A stretch of DNA of 64,000 nucleotides from Candidatus Phycocordibacter aenigmaticus (GTDB lineage Bacteria > Patescibacteriota > Minisyncoccia > Phycocordibacterales > Phycocordibacteraceae): positions 547,247 to 611,246 of the forward strand of contig CP174359.1 in NCBI GenBank assembly GCA_045401115.1. The letters run 5' to 3'. The notes under the pieces were generated by a model. The model did not search any database. It saw only the letters and a list, made by a program, of their open reading frames with translations, and was not told the DNA's origin. The translations under genes and the position numbers were made by a program. Positions 18,970-57,719 of this stretch are shown in pieces (within the stretch, counting starts at the first letter, position 1; every line of letters begins with the position of its first letter).

Positions 18970-18972
18970 CGC

Positions 18973-23289: not shown

Positions 23290-23300
23290 ACAATAGCATA

Positions 23301-24657: not shown

Positions 24658-24700
24658 CGACAAAAGAAATGGCATTAACTGCGACCCTCTTATCAGTACA

Positions 24701-25792: not shown

Positions 25793-25812
25793 GGATATTA
25801 GAGAAAAGACGA

Positions 25813-26364: not shown

Positions 26365-26389
26365 ATAGGCGTAGTATAAAGGATAATTG

Positions 26390-27055: not shown

Positions 27056-27069
27056 GGTGTATTAAAGGG

Positions 27070-28080: not shown

Positions 28081-28134
28081 ATAAAGACAGTATAGCAAGC
28101 CGCAGGCTCAGGCTCCTAATTTCTACAAATAGGA

Positions 28135-29424
28135 CTATGTGCGCTCAATCGTAGCGCCTAATGACTGGAATTTTTGTTCAATCTGTTGATAGCCGCGGTC
28201 AATCAAGTGTGCATTACCGATACGTGACGTTCCACTGGCAACAGCACCTGCAAGCAGGAATGCGAGACCGGCACGAATATCCGGACCATCAATATCACGG
28301 GCCTTGAGTGGCGTCGGGCCTTTGACCGTTGCTTTGTGTGGGTTCCAGATACGAATGTCCGCTCCCATTGTTACTAAGTCATCAATATAATTAAGACGAC
28401 CATCAAAAATAGTTTCCACCACAGCGCTTTCTCCCTCTGCCTGTGTTAAGAGCGTCGTCATGGGCGCCTGAAGATCGGTAGGAAATCCCGGATGTTCGTG
28501 GGTACGGATATCAGTCGCGCGAAGCGTATCTGGACGCGATACAGTAATCGTATCTTCAGTAGCATGGATAGGGACTCCCATAACACGCAGTGCTTCAATA
28601 ACCGCATCCAGATCACTGGGACGCACATTAGTAATGGTCACATCTTTACCCAATAACGCACCAAGAATCAAAAAGCTCCCCGCCTCAATACGATCAGGGA
28701 TGACAGCAAACGGTTCTTGTGGTGGTTCAACATGTGCAGGATGAATAATTATTGTCGGTGTTCCGGCTCCTTCAATACGCGCACCACATTTTTTCAAAAA
28801 ATCTGCAGTTGCAACCACTTCCGGCTCCATTGCACAGTTTTTAAGTGTGACCGGAGCCTGTGCGCGTACCGCAGCCATCATAAATGTTTCCGTTGCCGTT
28901 ACCGACATAACGCGGAAAAAGATCGTACCACCGGAAAGACCTTCGGGAGGTGCAGTAAGGGTGCTACTTTCTTCGTCTCCCGTAAAGGAACATCCAAGCG
29001 TCTGAAACCCTTCAATAAATAAATCAATGGGACGGGAACCAAGTACACATCCACCAGGGTGAGGAAATGTGACACTTCCAAGCCGAGCAAGTGTTGCGCC
29101 AATAAGTAAAACACTTGCCCGTAATCGTTTTGCTAGTGTCTGGTCTAAAATAGTATTTTTTGCATCTTGTGTACGAATTGAACAAACCCCGTCCCGGTAG
29201 CTTCCATACGCTCCAATCCCTTCAAGTAAAGAAATCATCGAGTGCACATCCGCAATATTAGGTACATTCGTTAATTGTGTCTCACCATCCACAATAAGCG
29301 ATGCTGCCATAATAGGTAACACCGCATTTTTAGCCCCCTCAATAGCGACACTTCCTGAGAGTGTTGGTTCCCCCGCTGAACCGGTAATAATAAAAGCCTG
29401 GTTTTCGTTGATATTCATAGGCAT
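28135..29424 (-). CDS. murA: UDP-N-acetylglucosamine 1-carboxyvinyltransferase
   Basis: 429 aa; EPSP-synthase-like fold; active-site Cys region HPGGCVLGSRPID; start MPMNINENQAFIITGSAG. Confidence 0.9.
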   Translation of the reverse strand: MPMNINENQAFIITGSAGEPTLSGSVAIEGAKNAVLPIMAASLIVDGETQLTNVPNIADVHSMISLLEGIGAYGSYRDGVCSIRTQDAKNTILDQTLAKRLRASVLLIGATLARLGSVTFPHPGGCVLGSRPIDLFIEGFQTLGCSFTGDEESSTLTAPPEGLSGGTIFFRVMSVTATETFMMAAVRAQAPVTLKNCAMEPEVVATADFLKKCGARIEGAGTPTIIIHPAHVEPPQEPFAVIPDRIEAGSFLILGALLGKDVTITNVRPSDLDAVIEALRVMGVPIHATEDTITVSRPDTLRATDIRTHEHPGFPTDLQAPMTTLLTQAEGESAVVETIFDGRLNYIDDLVTMGADIRIWNPHKATVKGPTPLKARDIDGPDIRAGLAFLLAGAVASGTSRIGNAHLIDRGYQQIEQKFQSLGATIERT

Positions 29425-40665: not shown

Positions 40666-40688
40666 GTAGCAAGGACCGACCTCGCTAC
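40666..40688 (-). repeat. hairpin of the GGTCGGTCC-loop family (GTAGCGAGG-TCGGTCC-TTGCTAC on the minus strand)
   Basis: First member of a six-member hairpin family between 40.6 and 44.9 kb. Confidence 0.5.
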
Positions 40689-42655: not shown

Positions 42656-43792
42656 ATGATACAGAAAATAAGCCTCTTTCTTACCCTTTGTTTACTTGTT
42701 GTGACCGCACTGCCAAGCACCGCCCTGGCAGCACAGTTTGAAGTAGGTGAACAACCATCGCTTCCCACTGGCGCCATTATTGATGACGTCTACATGGCAG
42801 GAGGCAATGTGCATTCTGCAGCGGATATAACCGGTGACCTGGTTGCCGGTGGCGGTAATGTACTTATCGATGGTTCCATTTCTGAGGACTTAATAACTTC
42901 TGGAGGTTCAGTGACCATCACTGGCGCTGTTGGCGACGACCTGCGTGTTGCCGGTGGTGCAGTAACTATTACCGGTGCTATTGGCGGTGATGTGGTGGCG
43001 GGTACCGGGCAACTACACATCAGCGGTGAAGGCATCGGCGGCGATCTTGTATGGGGCGGCGGTATGTTGCAACTCAACGCACCGGTTGCCGGTAATGTAC
43101 GCCTCGGTGGCGGTGAAGTAATTATTAATGCACCTATTGAAGGTAGCGTAGAGTTTTACGGTGACACACTTATTCTCGGCAGCGATGCGTCTATCACTGG
43201 CACCTTGACCTATCAATCACCAAACGAAGTGATTATGAAAGATGGCGCAGTAGTAAACGGAGAGATCTCCTACGAACAAACAACACCTAAAGACATGGTT
43301 GATGTTTCAACGGTTGCCACTATTTTCTCTGTGGTGACACTTATTGCCTTCTTAATGTGGTTAGTCGCCGGTCTGGTGATTGGTCTTGTGTTCCGTCGCT
43401 ACACCACCACTGTTGTGACACACGCCCTTACGCGTCCTCTCGCATCTCTTGGGTATGGATTGAGTGCCGCTATCGTGCTCCCTATTATCTCCATTATCCT
43501 CCTCTTCACTATCATTGGTTTACCGTTTGCAGGTTTAGGCTTGATTGCCTTTGCTGGACTCATGTTGATGGGCGCTATTCTGACTCCGATTGCACTTGGC
43601 AGTTTGCTAATGAAATGGACTGACCGCCAACCTGAATATGTGGTGAACTGGAAGAGTATTCTCCTTGGTGTTCTGGTGTATATGCTTCTTGGTTTTGTTC
43701 CATTCATTGGTGGATTAGTGCAGCTCATTCTTACCATCATGGTGATTGGTGGCATCGTGAAGCTCAAGCTTGATATTGCTAAGGAATGGTAA
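42656..43792 (+). CDS. beta-helical repeat protein (bactofilin/DUF4097-like Gly-rich repeats) with signal peptide and four C-terminal TM helices
   Basis: 378 aa; about ten tandem ~17-aa repeats of the form GGxVxIxGxIxGDLxxxGG; hydrophobic C-terminal third. Confidence 0.5.
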   Translation: MIQKISLFLTLCLLVVTALPSTALAAQFEVGEQPSLPTGAIIDDVYMAGGNVHSAADITGDLVAGGGNVLIDGSISEDLITSGGSVTITGAVGDDLRVAGGAVTITGAIGGDVVAGTGQLHISGEGIGGDLVWGGGMLQLNAPVAGNVRLGGGEVIINAPIEGSVEFYGDTLILGSDASITGTLTYQSPNEVIMKDGAVVNGEISYEQTTPKDMVDVSTVATIFSVVTLIAFLMWLVAGLVIGLVFRRYTTTVVTHALTRPLASLGYGLSAAIVLPIISIILLFTIIGLPFAGLGLIAFAGLMLMGAILTPIALGSLLMKWTDRQPEYVVNWKSILLGVLVYMLLGFVPFIGGLVQLILTIMVIGGIVKLKLDIAKEW

Positions 43793-43834
43793 TACAAGGG
43801 GTGTAAACGACATCACACTTCCCTATTTACACTA

Positions 43835-43865
43835 AAAATAGCGAGGTCGGTCCTCGCTATTTTTA
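43835..43865. terminator. intrinsic terminator hairpin of the GGTCGGTCC-loop family (AAAATAGCGAGG-TCGGT-CCTCGCTATTTT)
   Basis: Stem of 10 bp or more with A-run and T-run; 3' of the 42656-43792 gene. Confidence 0.65.
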
Positions 43866-43884
43866 GTGGTTATGTATAAAAATT

Positions 43885-43913
43885 TCTCAAGACCAGTCCT
43901 TGAGATTTTTTTT
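43885..43913. terminator. bidirectional terminator (TCTCAAG-ACCAGTC-CTTGAGA-T8), loop variant of the same family
   Basis: 7-bp stem plus T8; 3' of the minus-strand gene 43925-44857. Confidence 0.65.
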
Positions 43914-43924
43914 GTTTTAAGGGG

Positions 43925-44857
43925 TTAGGTGTGTTTTTCTAAGAAGTGGTCAAAGGCCATCTTTCGAATGGTGTCTCCCTCAGCTGTAAGACTGTGACCG
44001 CTTGATTGGGCGATGACCAGCTCTGCATTATTCATTTTTCCGGCGAGTTCGTATGCTTTCTGCAGCGGGCAGAGTATGTCGTAGCGGCCATGCACTATCA
44101 CTGCCGGTATGTCTGCGATCTTATCGACGTTGTTGAGAATATAATTGTCCGGAATGAACTCATGATTCATTTCATAGTGAAGGAAAATGCGCACTGATGC
44201 GATATCGTCTTCAGTCACCTCTTCAGGGTCCTGGTATGATACGGCGGAAAGTGTTGAGAATAAGTTTCCTTCCCAGTCTTGCACCTCTGCGGCAAGTTCT
44301 CTTTGCTGTTCCGGAGTCGCCTCATCAAACGCTTTGAGTATGTCCTTGTTCTGCGATTCCACGTTAATGTTGAAGCGCTCAAAGAACTTCATGCGTTTCT
44401 CCCACACATCAGGCATAAGACGCGCGACACCCTTGGTGTCTTCCATACACCAAGCAATTGAATCGCGGTCTGCAAGGAATACTGCGGTAATCAAAATGCC
44501 ACGTACCTTCTCTGGGTGTTTAATGGCATACAGCAGTGCCAGTGTTGAACCCCAACTTCCACCTGAAACAAACCACTTTTCAATACCAAGCTGTTCTCTG
44601 ATTCTCTCGGCGTCATGAAGAAGGTGGTCGGTAGTATTGTGTTCCAACTCCCCGCTTGGCGTGCTTTTCCCACATCCGCGCTGGTCAAAGAGAATAACGC
44701 GGTAGGTATTCAAATCATATGATTTTGCATAGCGCGGCTTGCTGCGTGAACCTGGCCCGCCATGAAAGGACAGTATCGCCGGCCCCTCAGGGTTTCCGTA
44801 TTCAGAAAACGAAACAATATGTCCATCCTCCTCTGGTAGTTGGTGTTCTTTTTTCAT
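43925..44857 (-). CDS. pip: proline iminopeptidase (alpha/beta hydrolase, S33)
   Basis: 310 aa; HGGPGS oxyanion motif; nucleophile elbow GGSWGS; C-terminal His. Confidence 0.8.
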   Translation of the reverse strand: MKKEHQLPEEDGHIVSFSEYGNPEGPAILSFHGGPGSRSKPRYAKSYDLNTYRVILFDQRGCGKSTPSGELEHNTTDHLLHDAERIREQLGIEKWFVSGGSWGSTLALLYAIKHPEKVRGILITAVFLADRDSIAWCMEDTKGVARLMPDVWEKRMKFFERFNINVESQNKDILKAFDEATPEQQRELAAEVQDWEGNLFSTLSAVSYQDPEEVTEDDIASVRIFLHYEMNHEFIPDNYILNNVDKIADIPAVIVHGRYDILCPLQKAYELAGKMNNAELVIAQSSGHSLTAEGDTIRKMAFDHFLEKHT

Positions 44858-44890
44858 ATGTTTATGATACCAGATAACGAGGTCGGTCCT

Positions 44891-44926
44891 CGCTATTTTA
44901 AAAATAAACAGCTCAATGGGTTGAGC
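44891..44926. terminator. palindromic terminator (AAATAAACAGCTCAA-TGGG-TTGAGCTGTTTATTTTT), preceded at 44864-44889 by a GGTCGGTCC-loop hairpin
   Basis: 11-bp stem with A/T runs; 3' of the gene 44961-45911. Confidence 0.6.
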
Positions 44927-44960
44927 TGTTTATTTTTGTCTTATATTTATGAAATTTCTC

Positions 44961-45911
44961 CTATGACTCAGTACGGTTTTGCTTTTGTAGTGTGAACTGA
45001 ATTTTGTAAGTATAAAAGTCGATATTAGGGGCAACAGATAACGCTCGGTGTATTTTTACATCATCCTCAAATCCAATAATAGCGCCGCGCACTGTTTGTC
45101 CTGGCTCCGCAAGTTCTTCTTTTACATAGCCCATATAACGTTGAATCTGGCCCACCACGGTGTCAGTAACTCGACCACGTTTAAGTTCTACAACTAACAG
45201 GTTCCTTTTATCTTTACTGATTGCAAGAATGTCTATAGGGCCGGTATCACTGGGGTACTGCCTTCCAACCCTTTCGCCATCTACCTCATAGATATCATAT
45301 TTCTCACCAAGCTCCATGTGAGTCCAGTTATGTTCTAGGAAGTCTTCTAGATGCTTCTCTAAGGCAAATACGCTTGGGTCTTCAATTGTGGCATCGGCTG
45401 AAACGATAGTGGCTGGAGCCTTACCTTCTAGGAGTAATTTCAATTCTTCAGCATGAGCTGAAACGTTACTCACTGTTCCAATCGAACCTGCTGAATTACG
45501 TAATGATTCACTCATGTCTTCTCGAGCAATTGTTTGCTTATACCACTTAACAGGTCGACGATGCGGCAAAACCTTACCTGGGTGATATTCATAATCACCG
45601 ACCACTTCTGCAATGTGATATTTACCATCACCGCTCGGAGAAAGAACAACGTCACCAACACTAACACCTTTTATAATTGTATGGAGCATCCCGCACGCTA
45701 AACCAGCCGCTACTTTTGATTTTTCTGGATTCTGCTCAATGTAAACCGGTATAAATTCTTTATTAAAATCTCGCCATGCTTCCGGGATTTTGCCATTCAA
45801 ATCAATGTCTGGCAGCCAACCAGCACCAATAAAGCTCTCGTTTAGTGCGTCTTGTATGTGTGCACTTTTAGCACCCTGCATCACTCTGTAGTAGCTTTTC
45901 ATAATTCCCAT
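44961..45911 (-). CDS. nuclease with C-terminal NucS/DUF91-type PD-(D/E)xK domain and N-terminal unknown (possibly DNA-binding) domain
   Basis: 316 aa; C-terminal PIDILAISKDKRNLLVVELKRGRVTDTVVGQIQRYMGY (D...E-x-K...QxxxY) typical of the NucS C-domain; immediately downstream of hsdR. Confidence 0.55.
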   Translation of the reverse strand: MGIMKSYYRVMQGAKSAHIQDALNESFIGAGWLPDIDLNGKIPEAWRDFNKEFIPVYIEQNPEKSKVAAGLACGMLHTIIKGVSVGDVVLSPSGDGKYHIAEVVGDYEYHPGKVLPHRRPVKWYKQTIAREDMSESLRNSAGSIGTVSNVSAHAEELKLLLEGKAPATIVSADATIEDPSVFALEKHLEDFLEHNWTHMELGEKYDIYEVDGERVGRQYPSDTGPIDILAISKDKRNLLVVELKRGRVTDTVVGQIQRYMGYVKEELAEPGQTVRGAIIGFEDDVKIHRALSVAPNIDFYTYKIQFTLQKQNRTES

Positions 45912-45930
45912 TGTATCACTGGGTTATTTT

Positions 45931-48732
45931 CTACCACTCAAAAATATCTACAATATCTTTAATTGCTTCGCGGATGCGATTAACCACAGACTTATGCTCC
46001 ATGAGTCGAGGGCGTTCTGGCAAGCGCTCGACAATGTCTTCACCACTTGGAAGTCGGTCTGTGTATAGATACTCACCAATTAAAACCTCAACATCTTCCA
46101 TTGAGATGTTTTCAGTTTCTGTGAGGTGTCGCAATGTTGTAGAGCGTTCACTTGCCCAAAATTCAGAAAATGCAGCTTCAACATCTTCAGAGCGTGATAC
46201 TTGAGGAAGATTTTCTTCAATAAACTTCCTTACTAAGTCTTTCTTCTTACGAAGGTTTACGTCACGATCGAATACTTTCAAAATATCTTCTGTCTTCTTA
46301 GCTCGCGCTGCATCAGAAGTAATGTTCTTTAGGCCAGCAATGAGTTGGATGATGTAGTCGAAGTTAACAAGATCTCGAACGGTTAGCTCAAGCTCAAAAT
46401 CAATTTGATCAAGAATTGATTCTTTTTCCTTATCTATTGTTTTACTTTCAGCATATATATCAAGGTACTTACTCTGATAGTCATAGAACTCTTGTTCTGT
46501 AATACCAAGGTCATCAAAAGAGAATTCGGCAAAAGTTTCTAGCGACGATTTGATACGAAGCAGATCACGAAATGACTGAACAAAGTCCGCTTTCTCTTGC
46601 TCGCCTTGCAGAGAATCAACGGAGTCTGGATTCGTTACTTTTTCTCGAAGCTCATCTAACTTTTCTTTAAATTCTTTCTTCTGCTCCTCATAAGGCTTTT
46701 TAAACACTACCTCCTTCGCATTCTCATCACCGTAAAGGGCCAAGGCCTTGTCGGTCGCTTCCTTAAGGTTTCGGAATGAAACAATATTGCCGTGCGGCTT
46801 ATCGGAGTTCAAAAGACGATTGGTTCGAGAATAGGCCTGAATGAGTCCGTGATAGCGCAAGTTCTTGTCTACATAGAGCGTATTGAGCCGTTTGCTATCA
46901 AACCCGGTCAGGAACATATTCACTACTAGAACTAGATCTACTTGTTTGTTTTTAATTCGCTTCTGGATATCTTTATAGTAATCATAAAACTTATCCGTAC
47001 TGTAGTTCGTGCTATAGATAGCGTTGTAGTCTTTAATACAATTCTCTAGAAAATCACGAGAATGCTGATTCACGCTAACGCCTTCCGTTTCCAAAGGATC
47101 ATTATCTAAGTCTGCATTCTCATCATCAGACTCATTGGCATGATAGGTGAAAATAGTAGCAATCTTCATATCCTCAGGGGCCCTTTCTTTAAATAGTGTG
47201 TAGTAGCGCTTGAGAACATCAATGCTGGTTACTGCAAATAGAGCGTTGAATTTTCCAGCCTTTGTTTTCTTTTTCCAGTCGTGGAGTACGTAGTCGGTGA
47301 TTTTTTCAAGACGATCCTGGCTTTCAAGCACTTCCTTCGTATCAATTCCCTCCACCATTGCGTCTGAAAAAATGTCTGCATCAAGTACGTCGGGATCTTT
47401 TTGCTTATATTTACCAACATATTCTACTGAGAACCCGAGTACGTTGTTATCACTAATAGCGTTGGTGATGATGTATTTATGTAAACAATCAGTAAAGACA
47501 TCTTTAGTTGTAACCTTGCCAATATGATTCTCCGCAAAAATAGGTGTGCCAGTAAAACCAAACAGTTGTGCTTTATTAAAGAAACTTTTAATACGTGTGT
47601 GTGTTTTCCCAAATTGACTTCTGTGGCACTCATCAAAAATAATCACTACCTTTTCATCCTTTAGATATTCAAATTGCTTCAAATATGGCCCTCTCCCAAT
47701 CGCAATATCAAGCTTTTGGATAGTAGTAACAATGAGCTTGCGATTTGGATCGGCTAACTGCTTCACTAGAGCACTAGTATTATTTGTGCCATCAACTGAG
47801 CCATCAGAAAATGAATTAAACTCTTCAGTGGTCTTAATGTCTAAGTCCTTACGGTCTACCACGAACATTACTTTCTTAATATCAGGATTTCGGGCAAGAA
47901 TCTGGCTAGTCTTGAATGCTGTCAAGGTCTTCCCCGCCCCGGTTGTGTGCCAGATGTAGCCATTCTTATTTGATTCATTTACCTGCTTCTCCAAGGCTTT
48001 CACTGCGTAATACTGATATGGCCGGAGCACCATTGGTATTTGTTCTGCCTCTGCTAATACTGTATGCTCCGCTATCATTTCTGATACCGCACACTTCTCT
48101 AGGAAAATATCAGTGAAATCTTCAAGCTTGGTGATTTTCTTATTATCGACATCAGTCCAATAAAAGGTCTGCTCGAATGTTTGCTTTGGATTATTAGAAA
48201 AGTACTTAGTATTTACGCCATTGGAGATGACAAAGATCTGTACGTATTCAAAAAGCGTGCCCGTAAATGAATGTTTGTGGTATCGCTGTATTTGATTAAA
48301 CGCTTCCTTCATTTCAATACCGCGACGCTTTAGTTCGATCTGAACTAGAGGTAGTCCGTTAATTAATAGCGTTACGTCATAACGATTCTCATACTTGCCG
48401 ACTTGTGTGATTTGCTGGGTTACCTGATACTCGTTTTTGCACCACTGGTCCATGTTGAAGAACTGAATCCAGATAGTGGTTTCATCGTCACGCTTTAGGG
48501 AGAAACGGTCACGCAGGGTCTTGGCTTTATGGAAGCGGTCACCTTTCATGAGATAATTCATGATGCGAGACCACTCATCATCTGAGAATGTGGTGTTGTT
48601 AAATTTCTCTAGTTGGGAACGGAGGTTAGCTTCAAAAGCAGCAGATTCTTCGACTACAACCGGCTCAAACCCCAAGCGCGTTAATCGCTCGATCAGTGAT
48701 TTTTCTAGTTGTGCTTCGGATTGATGGGTCAT
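45931..48732 (-). CDS. hsdR: Type I restriction enzyme R subunit
   Basis: 933 aa; N-terminal HsdR_N nuclease region; SF2 motor with Walker A HTTGAGKTLTAF and DEAH-box FDECHRS; C-terminal helical domain. Confidence 0.9.
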   Translation of the reverse strand: MTHQSEAQLEKSLIERLTRLGFEPVVVEESAAFEANLRSQLEKFNNTTFSDDEWSRIMNYLMKGDRFHKAKTLRDRFSLKRDDETTIWIQFFNMDQWCKNEYQVTQQITQVGKYENRYDVTLLINGLPLVQIELKRRGIEMKEAFNQIQRYHKHSFTGTLFEYVQIFVISNGVNTKYFSNNPKQTFEQTFYWTDVDNKKITKLEDFTDIFLEKCAVSEMIAEHTVLAEAEQIPMVLRPYQYYAVKALEKQVNESNKNGYIWHTTGAGKTLTAFKTSQILARNPDIKKVMFVVDRKDLDIKTTEEFNSFSDGSVDGTNNTSALVKQLADPNRKLIVTTIQKLDIAIGRGPYLKQFEYLKDEKVVIIFDECHRSQFGKTHTRIKSFFNKAQLFGFTGTPIFAENHIGKVTTKDVFTDCLHKYIITNAISDNNVLGFSVEYVGKYKQKDPDVLDADIFSDAMVEGIDTKEVLESQDRLEKITDYVLHDWKKKTKAGKFNALFAVTSIDVLKRYYTLFKERAPEDMKIATIFTYHANESDDENADLDNDPLETEGVSVNQHSRDFLENCIKDYNAIYSTNYSTDKFYDYYKDIQKRIKNKQVDLVLVVNMFLTGFDSKRLNTLYVDKNLRYHGLIQAYSRTNRLLNSDKPHGNIVSFRNLKEATDKALALYGDENAKEVVFKKPYEEQKKEFKEKLDELREKVTNPDSVDSLQGEQEKADFVQSFRDLLRIKSSLETFAEFSFDDLGITEQEFYDYQSKYLDIYAESKTIDKEKESILDQIDFELELTVRDLVNFDYIIQLIAGLKNITSDAARAKKTEDILKVFDRDVNLRKKKDLVRKFIEENLPQVSRSEDVEAAFSEFWASERSTTLRHLTETENISMEDVEVLIGEYLYTDRLPSGEDIVERLPERPRLMEHKSVVNRIREAIKDIVDIFEW

Positions 48733-50588
48733 GTTGTTGTTGAAAGGTTATCGTCAATCCACTTGAAAATAACTTCAAAGCTTTGTACTGCCTCATTAGA
48801 CAAGTTTTCTTTCTTAATTTCTTCTCGCTCTACCTTAGAAGCAAACTCTCTAGCAAACAATATTTTTCTCCTACCAATGATTGTAGAAGGTTTTCGTTTA
48901 TCATCAGTTTTAATCTTTTTATCAACCAGAGAAAAGTCCTTAACTGTAAACAAATTTTCAATTTCGCTTTTAGATATCAGCTTAATTTTCTTGTTTGTCT
49001 CATTATCATCACCATTAAAAATTCGCTCCTTTAAATCTTCTTTTGTCATTTTTGGATTCTCACCATTGTCCATAACAAGCAACCAATCTAAGCCATAGCC
49101 TATACAAAAAGATATAAGGTGATAAATATGGTTTCCTTTAATGCCAATACCTGGAACAAACTTGTAGTCAATTTCTTTATCAAGGATTTTTGCCATTGAT
49201 TTGAAATACCAAAAATCAGACAGACCTTCTAGTAATACATTCTTTCTAGAAAGAACAGAGAAGTCCTTAAGTGGCTCTAAGCCCATTGCTTCTGCAATAG
49301 GTTGCAATGCCTCTTGTTTGTAGGTCGTATCTAACTTGGTGGTAGTCAATCCTTCAACAATGGTTCCATTGTCCTTGGTATTTATAACTAGTCCAATATT
49401 ATAAAGCAATTCTGTGTTAATTAGCGAAGGAGAATGAGTTGAGTAAATTACCTGGTGGTTCTTTTTAATCAATTCGTCGAACACGTTCAGTATGTCTTTA
49501 TGTGCTTTAACATGGAGGTGCAATCCAGGTTCGTCATACAAAATAACTCGCTTTCGGCCGTGTTCCATTGATTTAAGCTCCAACCACGCAGATAAAAACC
49601 AAATCATTCCTTTGCTTCTTTTTCTCGGCTCTAGAAGCACATTATCTTTTGTTTCTATATAGAAAAATACAGTTGGAACGGCCTGACTGTTTACACTTTC
49701 ATTGTTTATTTGAAATTTTATATACAAATCACCCTCTGAGTATATTCTTTGTTTCCATGCTTTTTGGAATTTAGTAGACAATTTCGTTACATTAGTGGAT
49801 GTCACAGATGTCTGGTGACTGTTCGACAATTTAGATATCGAAACAAAATCCTTATCTAGCAACTCTTCGAGATTTTTAACGGCATTGTATCCTTCTGCTT
49901 CCGTATTTCTTGATTCAAGGTCTGAGATTTTTATTTTATCTGGCAACAAATCGCTGAAAGCGTTAAACAAAACAATTTCAGGAGAGATACCAAAAAATAC
50001 TTCTGCAACTTCTTTTTCCTTTCCTTCTAAATCTATCCAGGGAGTTTTGTTCTTAACCTCCTTTCCATCGGTGTTCGTTTCAACAACCTCCTTATTTTTG
50101 ATAGCACCTCGAACGATACCGAAAACAGAGTCCGTTAACGACATCTCTAAAGTATTTGATTCAAGATTGAATTGTTTTGTAATTGTGTATTCTTTTACTG
50201 ATTTTAGTTTACCTTTATCAAAAAAATCATCCTCATCGCCAATTGAAAAAGTTTTGCGAAATTTCTTAATTAGAGAATTAGCCAAATCATCAGAATCATC
50301 CACTAAGTAAGTACACGAGATTTCCTGTGTAAAATTTTCTGCCTGCTCTTCTTCAAAATTTAATGAATCCCTTTCAAATTCTTCACTTTCGTAGGCATTA
50401 AGTGCTTCTAGTATTGAACTTTTCCCTGATTCATTTTGCCCAGCCAATACAAACATACTCTCAGAAAAGATAATATCTCCTGAATCTTTTATGCTCTTAT
50501 AATTTTTAATTGAAACTTTTTTTATCATAGTATTTCTACACAAACATTTTTTGAAGCAGCCCCTTTTTCCAAGCTTCTGCTTTTTCAA
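48729..50588 (-). CDS. OLD-family / PARIS(AriAB-fusion)-like ATP-dependent nuclease: N-terminal ABC-type ATPase (AAA_15/21) plus C-terminal TOPRIM/DUF4435-like domain
   Basis: Walker A GQNESGKSS; Walker B and signature ILYDEPGLHLH; H-loop STHSP; C-terminal Toprim-like LLEGLSD...LLVMDNGE; the start may be the internal Met at 50528; the stop overlaps the hsdR start (ATGA). Confidence 0.7.
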   Translation of the reverse strand: MKKQKLGKRGCFKKCLCRNTMIKKVSIKNYKSIKDSGDIIFSESMFVLAGQNESGKSSILEALNAYESEEFERDSLNFEEEQAENFTQEISCTYLVDDSDDLANSLIKKFRKTFSIGDEDDFFDKGKLKSVKEYTITKQFNLESNTLEMSLTDSVFGIVRGAIKNKEVVETNTDGKEVKNKTPWIDLEGKEKEVAEVFFGISPEIVLFNAFSDLLPDKIKISDLESRNTEAEGYNAVKNLEELLDKDFVSISKLSNSHQTSVTSTNVTKLSTKFQKAWKQRIYSEGDLYIKFQINNESVNSQAVPTVFFYIETKDNVLLEPRKRSKGMIWFLSAWLELKSMEHGRKRVILYDEPGLHLHVKAHKDILNVFDELIKKNHQVIYSTHSPSLINTELLYNIGLVINTKDNGTIVEGLTTTKLDTTYKQEALQPIAEAMGLEPLKDFSVLSRKNVLLEGLSDFWYFKSMAKILDKEIDYKFVPGIGIKGNHIYHLISFCIGYGLDWLLVMDNGENPKMTKEDLKERIFNGDDNETNKKIKLISKSEIENLFTVKDFSLVDKKIKTDDKRKPSTIIGRRKILFAREFASKVEREEIKKENLSNEAVQSFEVIFKWIDDNLSTTT

Positions 50589-51735
50589 TTTGCTTGGACT
50601 TTGCAGTGATTAACTCATCAATATCCGATAGAAAGTTAGCAATTCTTTTCTGCTCGTCAACACTTGGCATTGCAATTTCGACCCTTACAAAATCATCAGG
50701 CTTTACTGCCATTCTTTCGTAAACAGTTCCTTCTTCAAACCGTCTTGCTTTGTTAATAAAACTTGAATGAGTTAAGTAATATCCAACAAAATCAATATCC
50801 TGTTCGGTAATTTCATATGTTATGTAAATAGGAGAGAATATTCCGTCACCTAGTCTGTTAATATCTATTACATTGAATTTTAAATTGGCTGGGTTGTAAC
50901 ATAAATCATTTAGTCTAGTGATTTTGTATTTTTTTGATTTATCATCTTTTACTAAGAAATCCCTATGGTAACGTTCCGACTTTGGAACCACACCTGCTGT
51001 AGTTAATGAGATATGAGGATACCCGTTTCCTTTGGTTGAATATTCTTTCCTCTCTTTGAGAAAGTGACCGACAGGCATTTTTTGCCACTCAGGGAAGTAT
51101 TTCCCGTCTTCATCCTTAAATCGCACTTCTTGCGAGAAGATTTTTTGCATTATTCCGCGCTTGTATTCTTCAAGTTTTTCTTTTTGGGTTTTGAATGATT
51201 TGATTAGTTTATCTACACTCTCTAAGAAATTAGCGATTTGTGCTTGCTCATCTACTCCTTTTGGAAAGTGAATTGGAGATGCTGATACAAAGTCCCATTC
51301 AGCTCTTGGCATTTTTGAGCCAGCACTTACATTTGCAAAATAGTTAAATCTAGAGCCTTGTATAAAATAAAACAGAAATGAAGGCTCTACTTTTTTTGTT
51401 TTAAAAACCCATATTTCAGTAGTACATACACCATCAGATTTTGCATGTACGAATTTTCTTAGATAGGGTCGTAATTTTCCATACAACACATCGCCCAATT
51501 GGTATACATTTTTAATACTCTTTAGTTCTTGGGTTGGGATATATTTAATAACCTCGCCTGTATCCTTTTCGATGCTTTCTAGCTCTATTGAGTGAGGATA
51601 TTTTTTTGATTTCTGGGGGTCAAATTTCTCTTTACCAAGTTTAACTACATCGCCAAACTCGTATATACTCCACTCGCCTAAAAATCCAGGGAACCGCAGT
51701 TCGGGTGTATTCTTTTTTGTAGTCGCTGTATTCAT
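50536..51735 (-). CDS. hsdS: Type I restriction-modification specificity subunit
   Basis: 399 aa; two target-recognition domains separated by conserved coiled-coil repeats (e.g. LLQKIFSQE / GLLQKMF). Confidence 0.85.
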   Translation of the reverse strand: MNTATTKKNTPELRFPGFLGEWSIYEFGDVVKLGKEKFDPQKSKKYPHSIELESIEKDTGEVIKYIPTQELKSIKNVYQLGDVLYGKLRPYLRKFVHAKSDGVCTTEIWVFKTKKVEPSFLFYFIQGSRFNYFANVSAGSKMPRAEWDFVSASPIHFPKGVDEQAQIANFLESVDKLIKSFKTQKEKLEEYKRGIMQKIFSQEVRFKDEDGKYFPEWQKMPVGHFLKERKEYSTKGNGYPHISLTTAGVVPKSERYHRDFLVKDDKSKKYKITRLNDLCYNPANLKFNVIDINRLGDGIFSPIYITYEITEQDIDFVGYYLTHSSFINKARRFEEGTVYERMAVKPDDFVRVEIAMPSVDEQKRIANFLSDIDELITAKSKQIEKAEAWKKGLLQKMFV

Positions 51736-51742
51736 AGTTAAA

Positions 51743-53320
51743 TTAAAACGGTTTTTTTATACCCAACTCGTTACAGAATTCGACAATAGCTTTTTCAAGT
51801 TTCTCTTCACCTGCTTTTAATTTATTCAGCTCTTCTGCGATAGTATCAATATCGACAGGGTTTTCTTCCTCAAATGTATCTATGTAACGGGGGATGTTTA
51901 AATTGAAGTCGTTTTCTCTGATTTCATCCAGTGACGCGTTGTGAGAATATTTTTCAACCTCCTTACGATTTTTATAAGTGTCAAAAACCTTAACTATGTC
52001 TTTATCTTCTAAGTGGTTTTGATTTTTTCCTTTATAAAATTCTCTCGATGCTTCAATAAACAAAATGCTGTCATCTTTTTCACGGCACTTCTTGAATACG
52101 AGAATAGTCGCGGGAATTGTCGTTCCATAAAAAAGATTTTGCGGAAGACCAATAACCGCATCGAGATAATTTAATTTCTCAACGATGTACTGACGAATAG
52201 TTCCTTCTGCCCCCCCACGAAATAGTGCGCCATGCGGCAATACCACCGCCATGGTGCCGTTATCAGCCAAGTGATGAAGCATGTGGGTTACAAAAGCATA
52301 ATCCGCAGCGCTTTTTGGTGCCAGGCGGCCATATTGTGTAAAGCGATCATCTTGAGCGAGTATTGGGTCAGTATCACCTTTCCATTTAGCGGAGAATGGC
52401 GGGTTGGCCACAATAACCTCTGCTTGTAAGTCAGAGTGCTGATCATCTCTAAGCGTATCGCCTTGGCGAATATCAAAACGATCAAAGCGCACATCATGGA
52501 GAATCATGTTCATCCGAGCAAGGTTGTACGTAGTCTGATTAAGCTCTTGTCCGTAGTAGTGCTTGATTTCTGCGTAGTCAGAAAGACGCAAGAGTAATGA
52601 GCCAGAACCACAGGTGGGGTCATAGGCAGATTTAATAGTCTTCTTGCCTTCTGTGACAATCATAGAGAGCAAGCGCGATACCTGAGCTGGTGTATAAAAC
52701 TCACCACCTTTCTTTCCAGCACCAGCTGCAAATTCACCAATTAGATATTCGTATGCGTCACCGAGTAAATCGCTTTTGCTATCTGCTAGTTTAAAGTCGA
52801 TACCAGCCAAGTGAGAGAGAACTTCTACTACAGTGTCGTTCTTATCTTTTTCAGTTCGTCCAAGCTTACTTGAGGACAGGTCTACATCATCAAACAAGCC
52901 TTTGAAGTCGTCCTCACTATCGGTACCCATTGCAGTGCGTTCAATGGTGTCAAGAACGTTTTGAAGGTCTTCGAGAATAAAGGTATCATTCTCATTAATC
53001 TCACCCTTCCCTTTCGTTACGAGGTATGAAAACAGTTCCTGCGGGCGAAGGAAAAAACCAAGATGTTCAATGGCGAGATCTTTAATTGCACCAAGCTGCT
53101 CTTTACCTTCTTTGGTGCTTGGGTTGATATCAGCGTATGCAAAATCTTCACGAGCGAGAAGTTTTTCATTTACATACAGCTCTAGTTTTTCTGAAAGGTA
53201 TTTATAGAAAATAAACCCAAGAATATACACCTTATACTCATCCGCATTCATACGACCGCGGAGTGTATTAGCAACAGCCCACAACTGTTTTTCAAGAAGT
53301 TTCTTTTGCTCTTCCGTCAT
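51743..53320 (-). CDS. hsdM: Type I restriction-modification N6-adenine DNA methyltransferase subunit
   Basis: 525 aa; HsdM N-domain; motif I DPTCGSGSLLL; motif IV NPPF (VANPPFSAKW). Confidence 0.9.
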   Translation of the reverse strand: MTEEQKKLLEKQLWAVANTLRGRMNADEYKVYILGFIFYKYLSEKLELYVNEKLLAREDFAYADINPSTKEGKEQLGAIKDLAIEHLGFFLRPQELFSYLVTKGKGEINENDTFILEDLQNVLDTIERTAMGTDSEDDFKGLFDDVDLSSSKLGRTEKDKNDTVVEVLSHLAGIDFKLADSKSDLLGDAYEYLIGEFAAGAGKKGGEFYTPAQVSRLLSMIVTEGKKTIKSAYDPTCGSGSLLLRLSDYAEIKHYYGQELNQTTYNLARMNMILHDVRFDRFDIRQGDTLRDDQHSDLQAEVIVANPPFSAKWKGDTDPILAQDDRFTQYGRLAPKSAADYAFVTHMLHHLADNGTMAVVLPHGALFRGGAEGTIRQYIVEKLNYLDAVIGLPQNLFYGTTIPATILVFKKCREKDDSILFIEASREFYKGKNQNHLEDKDIVKVFDTYKNRKEVEKYSHNASLDEIRENDFNLNIPRYIDTFEEENPVDIDTIAEELNKLKAGEEKLEKAIVEFCNELGIKKPF

Positions 53321-53354
53321 TATTCTTCAGTATACCCCACATGAAAAACACGCT

Positions 53355-53858
53355 CTACTCCCCTGTTTCGCGCTGTATGAGCGCGACTGTTTCTTCTAAA
53401 GTGGAATCTTCGCCGATTATGATTTCGCCGGGTACATCCAGATAATTCTTCGGTTGGTACCACGATTTCATTTCTTCTTCGCCGAATTCATCTGCTACGG
53501 ATTTTGTCTTATGTCTTCTGATTGTTTCCTCTAAGGGAACATCGATATAGAACACCCTTACAGGACAGTGAGCGCGTTCCATCAGGCGCATTAATACTTC
53601 TTTGTATTTAGGTTTTGAGAGAATGCCCTCAAGAATGACTGTGTAGCCTTTCTCTAGGCAGTAGGTAACCGTTTGTTCTAATAGACCAATAATATCCGTA
53701 TTTTCCTGTGAATCTTTCTCCATTAAGATACCGCGGCGCAGGGCGTCCTGGCCGACAACCGCTACTTTTCCGTTGAGTTTTTCCCGTAGGCATTCTGCTA
53801 CGGCACTTTTCCCGGAGCCTGAGTTCCCGCGTATGATGATGAGTTTTTGGTTATTCAT
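53355..53858 (-). CDS. P-loop kinase-like NTPase (AAA_33/zeta-toxin/polynucleotide-kinase-like fold)
   Basis: 167 aa; Walker A GNSGSGKS at the N-terminus; Walker B-like VILEG; no further identifiable specificity. Confidence 0.55.
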   Translation of the reverse strand: MNNQKLIIIRGNSGSGKSAVAECLREKLNGKVAVVGQDALRRGILMEKDSQENTDIIGLLEQTVTYCLEKGYTVILEGILSKPKYKEVLMRLMERAHCPVRVFYIDVPLEETIRRHKTKSVADEFGEEEMKSWYQPKNYLDVPGEIIIGEDSTLEETVALIQRETGE

Positions 53859-53875
53859 AGTTAAAGACCTATCTT

Positions 53876-54403
53876 TTACTCTTTATCATCCTTTAAATCC
53901 AGTGCACTGCGAAACACTACCTTTTTAAAATCTTTGTCTTCAACGTGCGCTTCAGCCTCGTGCGGCGGAACCCACGCTATTTTTCTGACATGGCCGGCTG
54001 GGTCTTCGGTAAAATCTCCCTCGGGAACCACGTTACACCTATACACCAAACGATAGTGGCGGATATCTCCTGAAGGGCTCATGACCTTTTGATAGGCAAT
54101 CGGCGCGTAGTCTACTACGGCGCAGTTTGTTTCTTCCCGCACTTCCCTATGAAGCGTCTCCTCAATAGATTCCCCCGGCTCGCGCGTGCCGCCGGGGATG
54201 CTCCATATATTCCACTTAGTGAGATGTACTAGCACTATTTGACCGTTATGCAGGCACAAGGCGTGGGCTTTTATTTTTAACTCGTCCGGTATGTCGTCAA
54301 AATTGTTAGCAGCGACATGGTGAATATCGCACCGCTCTCCTCTATATGTGATTACTCCTTTGAAGACTTCTGGTTTCTCGTTGGGAATATCTGAGTTTTT
54401 CAT
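53876..54403 (-). CDS. NUDIX hydrolase
   Basis: Nudix box GGTREPGESIEETLHREVREETN; start taken at the internal Met (MKNSDIP...), giving a 6-nt gap to the upstream gene. Confidence 0.75.
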   Translation of the reverse strand: MKNSDIPNEKPEVFKGVITYRGERCDIHHVAANNFDDIPDELKIKAHALCLHNGQIVLVHLTKWNIWSIPGGTREPGESIEETLHREVREETNCAVVDYAPIAYQKVMSPSGDIRHYRLVYRCNVVPEGDFTEDPAGHVRKIAWVPPHEAEAHVEDKDFKKVVFRSALDLKDDKE

Positions 54404-54408
54404 GAACT

Positions 54409-55224
54409 TTATTTCCAGTACCCTAAGACGCACGCTTCTACTCCAACCGGTTTACCCTTCTTTGCAAACAAAATGACGGAATCCCTATCAACAATATATT
54501 TTTTAGTATTATCTTGTGCAAAACAAGTGCCTTTTTTCAGCTCTTCAAAATCATCAAAATTTTTAGTGAGCTCAAAGTCTTCAACATCTTTCATTACAAC
54601 ACGATAGACAAATAGGTGTTTTTGTTTTCTTTCTGTTCTCTCAGTTGAGACAGAAATAGCTCCGTTGTATTTGAGAAATTTATAGAGTGAATCTTTTGCA
54701 AGCCCAGTATACGATTCACTGTCCTCTGTATATCCACACTCCACACACACTCCCGGCTTGTTTTGGTGCAACATGTATCCTTCTGTTGCTCCTGGTTCAA
54801 TTTCATCCCAACCTGTTGAGATTATTTCAAAATCTAACTCTTTAACAAAATCTGAATCGAGGCCTCCGTGGATTACAAAAGGTGTCGTATTTTTTGTATT
54901 ACTCGCGTGAATATCTAAAAGAGTGTCTGACTTATCAAGAATAGGTAAAAGCTCCCTAGCAATACAATCTTCATAGGTTTGACCATTGTTACCTTCAATA
55001 AAACACCTGTTAAGGTTTTTTTCTATGAATCTAGTATTTTGTTTTATTGCTTTAGTATTAGCAAAAACAAAGTAGACGGTCCCATTTTTTATATCAACCT
55101 CTTCTAGTACTTCATTTACAGCATCTATCCCCACCCTTTCATTACCATGCACACCACAAAAAACAGCGAGTGTTTTCCCTGGATTCTTTCCTTGAATCAT
55201 TATAATTTTAGGACCATTTTCCAT
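54409..55224 (-). CDS. succinylglutamate desuccinylase/aspartoacylase (AstE/AspA) family zinc hydrolase
   Basis: 271 aa; N-terminal zinc-site motif CGVHGNER and downstream His typical of the AstE_AspA / M14-like deacylase family. Confidence 0.7.
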   Translation of the reverse strand: MENGPKIIMIQGKNPGKTLAVFCGVHGNERVGIDAVNEVLEEVDIKNGTVYFVFANTKAIKQNTRFIEKNLNRCFIEGNNGQTYEDCIARELLPILDKSDTLLDIHASNTKNTTPFVIHGGLDSDFVKELDFEIISTGWDEIEPGATEGYMLHQNKPGVCVECGYTEDSESYTGLAKDSLYKFLKYNGAISVSTERTERKQKHLFVYRVVMKDVEDFELTKNFDDFEELKKGTCFAQDNTKKYIVDRDSVILFAKKGKPVGVEACVLGYWK

Positions 55225-55292
55225 GCTCCAAAGTATACCAAAACCATACGAAATAAGGGCCGATTGTGTTTTTATAGTATTCTAATAGGGTT

Positions 55293-56288
55293 ATGCTTGG
55301 ACAGAAAATAGCCATGTACATAAACATCTTTTTGTTTATCGTATTGATACTTGTGCTTGTAAGTATATTTTTGCGTTGGAACGCAGTGCCTTTTTCGGTA
55401 AGTCCGCTCTCGCGGGAACATTTTGTTGCCACGGAATCAGAACAATTAGCATTATTTTATGAGCTTGAGCCGGGAGATGAGGTAGTGGATGAGTACCCGT
55501 GGCTGCCCAAGACGGCGCGGCAAACTATAACCAAAGATGGGTTTAATGAACGTTTCGAATACACAGTAAAAAAACCAAAAGATGTGTTCCGCATCATGAC
55601 GCTGGGCGATTCATTCACGTACGGTATGTATGTAAACACTGAAGAGAACTATTCTGAGCAACTTGAGGATATGCTTAATAACTCATGCCGAAGTGATGGA
55701 CAACGGTTTGAAGTAATAAACGCGGGAGTACCCGGCTATGACGTTGCGTATACAAGTGAACGTCTTAAAAACAGAGGAGCTCAGTATGAACCGGATCTTT
55801 TTGTGTGGTACTTAAACAATCCATTCCATAAATGGAACGAGATTGTTATACACCTAAACAACGAATGTGCTAACAACACCCCTGAGGAAGAATACAACAG
55901 TGTGCAGCCTGATGGGTCTGTAATACATACCTGCTCTATCCAGGTAGGACAGGAACTGGAAAAACGTAAAAGTTTTCAGGACATCATTGACTACCAGTCG
56001 GGTTATTTATTGACTACGATTGATGCGATAGCCGGCCAGTGGGTATTATTTGCCGATATTCAAACACATAGAGAAAACAATGAACTGCTTAACGAGGTTG
56101 CAGCACAGAACGATCGAGTTTATTTTCTTGAAGACCCGGTTGATATATACAGCGACACACGCTATCGAATCCCCGACGGACATCCGAGCCCTGCCGGCCA
56201 CGTAAAAATAGCTGAGGACATTTTCAACTATCTTACTGACAATAGACTTATTGCGTGTGATACGTCTGGTGCACAACGTTACGATTAA
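55293..56288 (+). CDS. SGNH/GDSL hydrolase with N-terminal TM anchor
   Basis: 331 aa; block I GDSFTYG (catalytic Ser); block III GVPG; C-terminal DGHP (Asp/His). Confidence 0.7.
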   Translation: MLGQKIAMYINIFLFIVLILVLVSIFLRWNAVPFSVSPLSREHFVATESEQLALFYELEPGDEVVDEYPWLPKTARQTITKDGFNERFEYTVKKPKDVFRIMTLGDSFTYGMYVNTEENYSEQLEDMLNNSCRSDGQRFEVINAGVPGYDVAYTSERLKNRGAQYEPDLFVWYLNNPFHKWNEIVIHLNNECANNTPEEEYNSVQPDGSVIHTCSIQVGQELEKRKSFQDIIDYQSGYLLTTIDAIAGQWVLFADIQTHRENNELLNEVAAQNDRVYFLEDPVDIYSDTRYRIPDGHPSPAGHVKIAEDIFNYLTDNRLIACDTSGAQRYD

Positions 56289-56414
56289 TTCTTCAACTCA
56301 ATGCATGTAACCGGTAATAGTACCTAACAGTGCGCAATAGCAATCTGCCGCCACCCTAGATCAAGCTGTATAAAAGAGCTCCAAAATACATAATACACAT
56401 GGCATACTGGTAAT

Positions 56415-57719
56415 ATGAAAAGCAATAAACATACACTATATATATCTACTGTGTTATTAGGTCTCTTTGTTTTTACTATTCCTTTTACTACACACGCACA
56501 AGAATACTACGAGTGCCAAGTTTCAGTTAAAGCATCAATGCGCGATGACGTTACGTGTCGTGATTATTTAAATTTTACACATCGTTGTCAGATTTATGAC
56601 AAAAAATACTCAGGCTCTGGTGTGCCTAACTTTTGTTCTAGCGAGTGTCTGAATAGAAGCGACATACCCCGTGTGTGTGCAGATGTTATTGTACAGCGCT
56701 CAAATAACCCAGAGGCACATGAAAAAAGAAATGCTATAGAAAAAGAAGGTAAGGATCAAATAGAGGACCAACTTGGTGTTGATATTGATCAGTTCATGGG
56801 CACCGATATTGAAAAAGAAGTTCGTAACAGATTAGAGGGAATAGAAAACGAAATCAATACTGAGGACGGTATTGATTCTGGCGAGATTCAATACATTACC
56901 AAAAGAATAGTAGCAGTTATAAGAGATATTTTGGGAGAAAAAGTAGGGGGTGTAATTACCGGAACAAAAGAAAAAATTGGAAATTTTGGAAATACAATAA
57001 AAAATAATATACCGATAATTGGAAACGCTGGAGACGATGAACTCACAGAGGAGGATTTTGAAGACCACAGCATAGAGGCAACTGGTTTTAATGAATTTCG
57101 TACAGAAAAGTGGCCGGATGACGATGGCACAAAAATAGCCAAAATAGTTGATCCATACGGCATTGAACGGTATACATCCGATGGAAAACATTTTTATGAT
57201 AACGCATATGATGCTGCGCATTCACAGGAAGGTTTCAGTAATATGGTGAACACCGTTGGCGACGCATGGGAAGGATTCACTGGTATATTCTCATTCCGCA
57301 CAAAATTGAAAGATGGAGATAAAGAACTTCAAAGAGAAATTGCTCGTGAAGTTTTAAACGATGCACAAAACCAACGAGAAAAAGATATTGAGAAGGCATA
57401 TGAAAAACTGAGTGGCCAAATAAAAACACCGACACTTGGCAACGTGCCTGCAAAGGCAGTTATTGAGGTTGCAAAAGAAGCAAGTGCAACTGATTTTGCC
57501 GGAGGAGCGCTACTTTATATTGAACAAAGAGAAGAAGGGAAATCTCCAGCAACTATAAAAACAAATCTCTCAGAAGAACTTTCTGAAGGGTACGGCACTT
57601 TTGGTAGAGGAGTCTCGCTTTCTACAACAAACAAAGATGCACCGGCAGTGTTGTTTGCGCGGTACGAAGAGACATATCAGCGCTACTTGCTCGCAAAAGA
57701 GTTTGGACGAAAAGAGTAA
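56415..57719 (+). CDS. hypothetical secreted protein
   Basis: 434 aa; signal peptide ending THAQE; Cys-rich first 80 aa; acidic, Glu/Lys-rich remainder; no recognised domain. Confidence 0.45.
   Translation: MKSNKHTLYISTVLLGLFVFTIPFTTHAQEYYECQVSVKASMRDDVTCRDYLNFTHRCQIYDKKYSGSGVPNFCSSECLNRSDIPRVCADVIVQRSNNPEAHEKRNAIEKEGKDQIEDQLGVDIDQFMGTDIEKEVRNRLEGIENEINTEDGIDSGEIQYITKRIVAVIRDILGEKVGGVITGTKEKIGNFGNTIKNNIPIIGNAGDDELTEEDFEDHSIEATGFNEFRTEKWPDDDGTKIAKIVDPYGIERYTSDGKHFYDNAYDAAHSQEGFSNMVNTVGDAWEGFTGIFSFRTKLKDGDKELQREIAREVLNDAQNQREKDIEKAYEKLSGQIKTPTLGNVPAKAVIEVAKEASATDFAGGALLYIEQREEGKSPATIKTNLSEELSEGYGTFGRGVSLSTTNKDAPAVLFARYEETYQRYLLAKEFGRKE

Follow-up and report, generated by a model that had tools for sequence, protein, structure and literature searches.

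Whether eight closely packed genes on one strand form a single defence system, or only part of them belongs together, is the question raised by positions 44961-55224 of a 64,000-nucleotide stretch of the Candidatus Phycocordibacter aenigmaticus genome (hereafter the window). The region holds eight open reading frames (ORFs), all on the minus strand. In the order of transcription they encode an AstE/AspA-like hydrolase, a Nudix protein, a P-loop kinase, HsdM and HsdS of a Type I restriction-modification (R-M) system, an OLD-family protein, HsdR, and a protein with a NucS_C-like nuclease domain. An earlier interpretation of the DNA (the sequence-only reading) had placed all eight in one long transcription unit, with the Type I system coupled to three extra nucleases or enzymes on either side. 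The ORF listing returned the same genes at the coordinates of that reading, and Pfam, NCBIfam and PADLOC agree with the identity of each. The present analysis observed or computed the gene content, the intact motifs, how the genes are conserved and exchanged, the resemblance of folds and the fusion of domains, and from these the transcription units and all biochemical activities are predicted. It leads to another grouping: the locus is probably a composite of an EcoR124I-like Type IC operon and two independently nested accessory nucleases, located beside unrelated host genes.

The Conserved Unit

The comparison set consisted of 166 loci, namely 80 genome loci with relatives of the NucS_C protein and 86 loci with relatives of the OLD protein, and all were searched with nine proteins of the window. 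Homologues of the AstE-like hydrolase, the Nudix protein or the kinase were found in none of the 80 NucS_C-family loci and in none of the 86 OLD-family loci. The two nuclease families were not found together either, as no OLD relative occurs in the 80 loci of the former and no NucS_C-protein relative in the 86 of the latter. The combination of a Type IC system, an OLD gene and PDC-S02 (the PADLOC candidate family of the NucS_C protein) was not found in any of the 166 related loci.

At the DNA level, homology to the sister operons L084, L086, L088 and L163 starts at 53320-53323, that is, at the ATG of hsdM. The closest of them, L084, matches only over 53320-51682 (hsdM) and 48733-44995 (hsdR and the last gene), and its homology ends within the NucS_C gene. 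The flanking genes, kinase and Nudix on one side and pip downstream, have a GC content at third codon positions (GC3) of 0.48-0.51, and the R-M block has one of 0.30-0.41. The pattern of homology, the content of the related loci and the GC3 break together delimit a conserved block from hsdM to the NucS_C gene (53320-44961), an insert flanked by host genes. The real unit is hsdM-hsdS-(OLD)-hsdR-(DUF8426/NucS_C), a Type IC R-M operon in which two accessory genes are optional, and the hydrolase, the Nudix gene and the kinase are unrelated host genes outside the defence unit. A unit of five genes is supported and a unit of eight is not. The array of eight is absent as a unit from the related genomes, a finding that the sequence-only reading had itself named as evidence against it. 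Its coupling of the Type I system to extra nucleases holds for two of them (OLD and NucS_C), which lie in one block with the system, and not for three on either side, since the upstream neighbors are unrelated.

If the eight genes were one defence system after all, the hydrolase, the Nudix protein and the kinase would process nucleotides or signals for the R-M enzyme and the nucleases. The gaps of 5-34 nt, the lack of a terminator before 44900-44937 and weak PADLOC matches of the Nudix protein to PDC-S07 (E 6.5e-09) and of the kinase to VakA (E 8e-04) agree with such a system. The two matches, however, reflect generic Nudix and P-loop similarity. Homologues of the kinase in other contigs of the Candidate Phyla Radiation (CPR), with 67-77% identity, adjoin ribosomal-protein, GrpB or PfkB genes (a metagenome scan with the kinase returned no relatives), and hsdM has a promoter-like box of its own. 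Together with the absence of the trio from the 166 loci, the start of homology at hsdM and the GC3 break, this renders an eight-gene system highly improbable. Tight co-directional packing is common in the window, where another minus-strand run of about 14 genes is located at 12163-29424, and the arrangement alone is therefore weak evidence for a functional unit.

The upstream trio, recognized by Pfam and NCBIfam domain matches, is formed by the AstE/AspA-like hydrolase (54409-55224, minus strand), the Nudix gene (53876-54403, minus strand, with its start corrected as described below) and an AAA_33/Zeta-like P-loop kinase of the NCBIfam PRK06762 family (53355-53858, minus strand). The GC3 of the hydrolase gene is 0.28, compared with 0.48-0.51 in the adjoining Nudix and kinase genes. 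The trio is therefore itself mixed in composition, and the hydrolase may have been acquired separately.

The Type I R-M Core

All three subunits of a Type I system are present at full length on the minus strand. The first gene of the conserved block is hsdM (51743-53320; 525 aa), for the m6A methyltransferase subunit, whose sequence matches N6_Mtase (E 1e-108), HsdM_N and the TIGR00497 hsdM model (E 1e-143; 479 bits against a cut-off of 243), with 70-81% identity to its counterparts in L084, L086, L088 and L163. It is followed by hsdS (50536-51735; 399 aa; GC 35%), which has two target-recognition domains, with Methylase_S matches in two stretches and a full-length match to PADLOC Specificity_I.

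The Type IC restriction/translocase subunit is encoded by hsdR (45931-48732; 933 aa). Its domains are HSDR_N, SWI2_SNF2, a T1R_D3-like domain and EcoR124_C (E 8e-57), and it scores 478 bits with TIGR00348 (cut-off 285) and E 4e-301 with PADLOC REase_I. In a phmmer comparison with EcoR124I HsdR (E 3e-167), the nuclease residues D...ELK and QxxxY are aligned. The PD-(D/E)XK nuclease motif, the superfamily 2 motor and the IC C-terminal domain of a family-IC HsdR are all found. Judged by its sequence, the core is an ordinary EcoR124I-like Type IC system. The three products would methylate host DNA at a bipartite site, and the enzyme would cut unmethylated incoming DNA after ATP-driven translocation. 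A role of the NucS_C protein as a trans-acting stand-in for a defective HsdR nuclease was ruled out, the HsdR motif being intact.

The hsdS-hsdR Slot in Sister Operons

The position between hsdS and hsdR, occupied in the window by OLD, has different content in the sister operons. In L084 (2853-10936; hsdM 79% and hsdR 88% identical) it contains an SLFN/AlbA_2 ATPase, and a NucS_C gene (80% identical) follows hsdR. L163 (245-5483; hsdM 81%, hsdR 89%) has an OLD of 34% identity in the slot. An 87%-identical OLD is found in L086 (hsdM and hsdR both 74%) and in L097 (hsdR 74%, hsdM off the contig); in L163, L086 and L097 the contig ends within hsdR. In L088 (5151-14863; hsdM 70%, hsdR 77%) the slot includes an OLD (69%), DUF8370/8371 and a 247-aa gene, and there is no NucS_C gene after hsdR. 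The hsdS identity among these otherwise near-identical operons is just 24-38%. As far as sequence comparison goes, the pattern indicates cassette exchange at fixed junctions in a shared hsdM/hsdR backbone, which in L163, L084 and L088 is 70-89% identical to that of the window. The two accessory nuclease genes are nested in the operon independently of each other.

Related Type I operons carry further recurrent cargo. One such pair, within or just upstream of them, is a helix-turn-helix and SocA_Panacea antitoxin-like gene with a 131-aa gene after it (L082:4293-6566 and L088:3320-4412).

The DUF8426-NucS_C Protein

The last gene of the array (44961-45911, minus strand; 316 aa) lies 19 nt downstream of hsdR, in agreement with the sequence-only reading, and its product consists of DUF8426 (PF28530) and a NucS_C-like PD-(D/E)XK domain, both assigned from precomputed Pfam (NucS_C E 2e-07). 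Residues 4-310 match positions 1-307 of the 308 of the PADLOC profile PDC-S02 (PDLC04824; E 4e-148). What defines the PDC candidates is that they lie embedded in a BREX, DISARM or Type I R-M system (bioRxiv 10.1101/2024.01.29.577857); the full-length profile match and the adjoining Type I system place the gene among them. Literature searches on DUF8426, and on DUF91 with Type I restriction, returned nothing relevant.

The nuclease motif (D227, E242-x-K244, Q255xxxY259) is invariant in 42 homologues, and the best matches of the C-domain, in sequence and in fold, are P. abyssi NucS and EndoMS. These matches, along with those to the NucS_C models of Pfam and NCBIfam, could be taken to mean that the protein is a housekeeping mismatch-repair endonuclease of the NucS/EndoMS type, which stands beside hsdR by chance. 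Against this, the similarity covers the C-domain only (residues 206-305) and reaches 41 bits, where the NucS equivalog cut-off is 216. The N-domain is DUF8426, and the N-domain of NucS, which serves DNA binding and dimerization, is not among the top PDB matches of its model. The family is also patchily spread over bacteria and archaea and tied to R-M operons, so that a mismatch-repair function is scarcely credible.

The AlphaFold2 model of the N-domain (pLDDT 89, pTM 0.83) finds its best PDB matches with Foldseek in YTHDF1/2/3, YTHDC2 and the EVE-HNH enzyme VcaM4I (probability 0.93-1.0, TM 0.40-0.56). Weak viral matches are ASCH proteins, and the full-length model also matches MspJI. No sequence similarity of DUF8426 to the EVE, YTH, SRA or ASCH models of Pfam was detectable. 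With the N-domain alone as query, 988 relatives were found among 1.84 billion representative proteins. Among 68 diverse ones, the partner domains are NucS_C/YhcG_C/PDDEXK_4 in 31, HSDR_N_2 in eight, McrB-type AAA_5 in five and GmrSD (GmrSD_N/C) in two; Mrr_cat, RAMA, DUF4357 and MrcB_N are also represented.

DUF8426 is also located in large multi-reader proteins (P0201, P0203, P0162, P0146, P0198 and P0136). For instance, one of 1096 aa combines DUF4357, DUF8426, MrcB_N and McrB-type AAA_5, and another of 979 aa combines GmrSD_N/C, RAMA, MGMT-like DNA_binding_1 and DUF8426.

The choice of partners points to a domain that behaves as the DNA-reader module of Type IV restriction enzymes. The sequence-only reading had suggested that the N-terminal domain of this protein could read modified or damaged DNA, and the moderate fold matches of the model and the fusions to Type IV modules make the modified-base part of that guess plausible. 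DUF8426 would read nucleic acids in the PUA-like (YTH/EVE-like) manner and guide the nuclease to modified DNA. The whole protein would then cover phages that evade the Type I system through their modifications, as has been shown for TgvAB in Vibrio. That it is a modification-reading, Type IV-like nuclease is a serious prospect, if slightly short of an even one.

The family is large (7568 matches among the scored candidates) and unusually well conserved: its members in many bacterial phyla, and in some archaea, are 56-68% identical. It is seldom found on viral contigs (four matches), and a phage origin is therefore not supported. Co-directional hsd genes are located within four genes in 38 of the 80 NucS_C-family loci, and in 28 of the 48 that have at least 5 kb on each side. 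The gene is placed between hsdM/S and hsdR in 22 loci and after hsdR, as here, in eight, and the gap that separates it from the adjoining hsd gene is in most cases -4 to 30 nt. Among the 76 neighbors scanned in the loci that lack Type I genes, no dominant neighbor family stood out.

Most often the family is hosted by an operon of a different Type I lineage (e.g., L031, L042, L064 and L081; about 6300-13100). In such operons hsdM is unusually long (about 805-820 aa), hsdR measures about 1010-1057 aa, and a conserved gene of about 235-250 aa comes immediately behind it.

The OLD Gene

The gene in the hsdS-hsdR slot (48729-50528 with its start corrected, minus strand; 599 aa) encodes an OLD-family protein, with an N-terminal ATP-binding cassette (ABC) ATPase and, at the C terminus, a TOPRIM domain in a single polypeptide. 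It matches AAA_15 (E 9e-26), OLD-like_TOPRIM (23.8 bits, cut-off 23.2) and PADLOC Old (E 3.5e-25), and among solved structures it comes closest to the Class 1 OLD from Thermus scotoductus (TsOLD; 6p74). Conserved across 23 homologues are the Walker A motif GxxxxGKS, the Walker B residues DE, the H-loop H365 and the TOPRIM residues E434, D438 and D487. In the TOPRIM domain of this clade, residues 486-490 (window 49060-49074) read M-D-N-G; D487 hardly varies, and G489 is invariant. The clade may differ in its metal site from the characterized OLD nucleases.

Orthologues are found inside the Type I operons of L086, L088, L090 and L097, with Type IC and Type IB both represented. A Sulfurimonas orthologue (55% identical), for instance, has YhcG and Fic genes as its neighbors in a Type IB operon. 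In flanked metagenome loci of the family, hsd genes occur in 12 out of 32.

Two further systems do not account for the gene. In Gabija (Class 2 OLD) an adjacent GajB, a UvrD-like helicase, would be expected, and the neighbors here are hsdS and hsdR, with no UvrD-type gene in the array. As to PARIS, in which the AriA ATPase has an AriB (DUF4435-TOPRIM) partner or is fused to it, the AriA model and Pfam AAA_15 both match over residues 21-390, the model of the AriAB fusion covers residues 22-91 only, and no AriB model is among the best 25 PADLOC matches of the protein. A specific kinship with PARIS was ruled out on the ground that the AriA match covers the same residues as the generic AAA_15 match. 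The OLD protein would act as a second-line nuclease, and inhibition of restriction or of RecBCD may be its trigger. Such a function, suggested by what P2 Old, PARIS and PrrC do, is conceivable, although rather doubtful.

Gene Starts, Terminators, and Transcription Signals

The ORF rule had over-extended two starts, and their correction removes two apparent overlaps; the tight spacing described by the sequence-only reading otherwise stands. The start of OLD is ATG 50528, 7 nt past the hsdS stop, in place of TTG 50588. That of the Nudix gene (175 aa) is ATG 54403, 5 nt past the hydrolase stop, in place of GTG 54433. For the DUF8426-NucS_C gene, ATG 45902 is a possible alternative start. After correction, the gaps from the hydrolase to the NucS_C gene are 5, 17, 34, 7, 7, -4 and 19 nt, where the negative value is an ATGA overlap of the OLD stop and the hsdR start.

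Past the last gene, 44900-44937 form a bidirectional intrinsic terminator with a perfect 17-bp stem and T-runs on both strands (folding energy -31.2 kcal/mol, z = -6.8, together with the hairpin at 44874-44899). That second hairpin, which lies directly past the terminator, is a copy of a short palindromic repeat, with 96% identity to 43838-43863. The sequence-only reading had put its terminators at 44891-44926 and nowhere else, which is approximately right. A consensus scan found no convincing minus-strand terminator within the array. A hairpin at the 3' end of the kinase gene was rejected as a terminator, having no adjacent U-tract, and an Rfam search across 43000-57000 gave zero matches.

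The palindromic repeat (ATAGCGAGGTCGGTCCTCGCTATTTT) is found on both sides of pip (43838-43863 and 44874-44899), with a third relative 3 kb off at 40666-40684; four matches were counted where 0.01 were expected. The repeat may represent a family of REP-like or terminator elements, or what a rearrangement has left at the edge of the island.

A generic sigma-70 consensus scan showed no enrichment (26 sites, 30 expected), and the promoter search was done instead by in-genome motif analysis of the genome's own starts. A strict -10-like hexamer starting 11-16 nt before the ATG was found in 13 of 52 long ORFs, compared with 2.3% expected (P ~1e-10). Its geometry suggests leaderless or near-leaderless mRNAs. 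The box is window-wide, often in the form gGTATACT (e.g., 1801-1808 on the plus strand, and 39750-39743, 53336-53329, 55239-55232 and 44871-44863 on the minus strand), and a Shine-Dalgarno-like sequence is seen at few starts.

In the array and its flank, the box is present at the hydrolase (tTGGTATACT), at hsdM (GGGGTATACT) and at pip (cTGGTATCAT), and in-genome motif analysis did not find it at the Nudix, kinase, hsdS, OLD, hsdR or last gene. The 8-mer GGTATACT has six occurrences in the 64 kb, including those before the hydrolase and before hsdM. The copy at 53329-53336 (minus strand), 14 nt before the hsdM ATG, is a -10-like hexamer and a putative internal promoter, and TGGTATACT at 55232-55240 (minus strand), before the AstE-like gene, is the promoter-like box of the upstream trio. 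Closely spaced internal genes have such a box in two cases out of 19.

Two promoters, at the hydrolase and at hsdM, and one terminator are predicted from these signals. The single strong terminator at the end had been foreseen, whereas the box at hsdM, besides that of the hydrolase, disagrees with one unbroken unit. The five genes at 53320-44961 probably form one transcript, from a leaderless-type promoter at hsdM to the bidirectional terminator at 44900-44937. Read-through from the upstream trio into hsdM is possible, because no terminator lies between the kinase and hsdM.

Relation of the Accessory Nucleases to the Type I Enzyme

The close nesting could also mean that the OLD protein, the DUF8426-NucS_C protein or both are physical cofactors of the Type I enzyme, for example degrading DNA after HsdR cleavage, or kept latent by the R-M complex as PrrC is by EcoprrI. 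The nesting is strictly co-directional with overlapping or near-abutting stop and start codons, and the NucS_C family, with its unusual conservation across phyla, is met repeatedly, in no fewer than two distinct Type I families. In addition, no protection against T4, T5 or T7 was reported for the one PDC-S02 representative that was expressed by itself in E. coli B. A physical cofactor is nevertheless improbable, as sister operons with other cargo or with no NucS_C gene function, HsdR has its own intact nuclease motif, and hsd genes are missing near many members of both families.

The composite of a Type IC operon and two nested nucleases is preferred, and several observations weigh against it or its parts. 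About half of the NucS_C-family loci (42 of 80), and the majority of the distant OLD loci, are without Type I genes in their vicinity. The lack of reported protection by the PDC-S02 representative in E. coli B belongs here as well. Reading of N6-methyladenine by DUF8426, in the manner of YTH domains, would clash with the same mark set by the neighboring Type I enzyme. The OLD TOPRIM has D487-N-G489 where TsOLD has D-E-D, in a region of low-confidence alignment, and its nuclease activity is therefore not assured. Finally, the putative promoter at hsdM is called from a motif, and the contrast between initial and internal genes in their boxes is weak and not significant (Fisher P = 0.10).

A broader interpretation would extend the composite to both families. 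DUF8426 would be an unrecognized reader of the PUA superfamily, the highly conserved DUF8426-NucS_C protein, with thousands of copies in bacteria and archaea, a dedicated Type I partner which reads the modification state of DNA and cuts phage DNA whose base modifications let it evade Type I restriction, and the parallel OLD clade a set of sentinels embedded in Type I operons. This is considered unlikely. If true, a widespread and uncharacterized Type IV family would depend on or cooperate with Type I enzymes, and the OLD sentinels would contradict the 'stand-alone' definition of Class 1.

Comparison with Known Systems

The nesting of accessory defence genes in Type I operons is already established by TgvAB, by PrrC and by the guilt-by-embedding survey behind the PDC candidates, and the window is a fresh instance of it. 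Current concepts remain unchanged and a known pattern is filled in. Type I operons appear here as places where exchangeable second-line defences can dock, in genomes as small as those of CPR bacteria (Patescibacteria) too: one hsdM/hsdR backbone (80-89% identical) has OLD, a distant OLD or a Schlafen-like ATPase in a single slot. A modification-reading nuclease would give a testable function to the abundant PDC-S02/DUF8426 family, which has no characterized member.

With EcoR124I and other Type IC systems the locus shares the hsdM, hsdS and hsdR trio. It differs in the two extra nuclease genes in or after the operon, in the order hsdM-hsdS-X-hsdR and all in one block. PrrC is nested in a Type IC operon, and PARIS (AriA/AriB) is set off by the anti-restriction protein Ocr. 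Both PrrC/EcoprrI and PARIS are, as is proposed for the OLD gene here, ABC-ATPase-based second-line effectors tied to Type I restriction, but OLD shows no specific similarity to them beyond the generic AAA_15 ATPase.

Similarly to the Class 1 members P2 Old and TsOLD, the protein is a single polypeptide of about 600 aa with an ABC ATPase and a TOPRIM domain, and it has no GajB, retron or separate AriB partner. A review describes the genes of Class 1 as single ones, with no other defence genes in their vicinity (PMC10568477). On the contrary, the clade of the window is nested in Type I operons and not stand-alone, a partial departure (12 of 32 loci) for which its genomic habit deserves to be flagged.

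As to the last gene, it is of the same kind as PDC-S02, to which the present work adds a domain reading, with a predicted PUA-like reader and a NucS_C nuclease, and the counts of operon positions. Its architecture of a reader domain with a nuclease is that of VcaM4I (EVE-HNH), MspJI (SRA-nuclease) and the YTH-McrB enzymes, but the nuclease is NucS_C/YhcG-like and not of the HNH or MspJI type. The nearest parallel in organization is TgvAB, a GmrSD-like Type IV pair embedded in a Type I R-M operon of Vibrio cholerae VPI-2 (PMC11411939). In both, a second restriction-type nuclease is nested co-directionally, and the proposed logic is that one system attends to unmodified DNA and the other to modified DNA. 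They are unrelated in sequence, and in place of the two-protein GmrSD a single DUF8426 and PD-(D/E)XK protein, whose activity is a predicted one, is found in the window.

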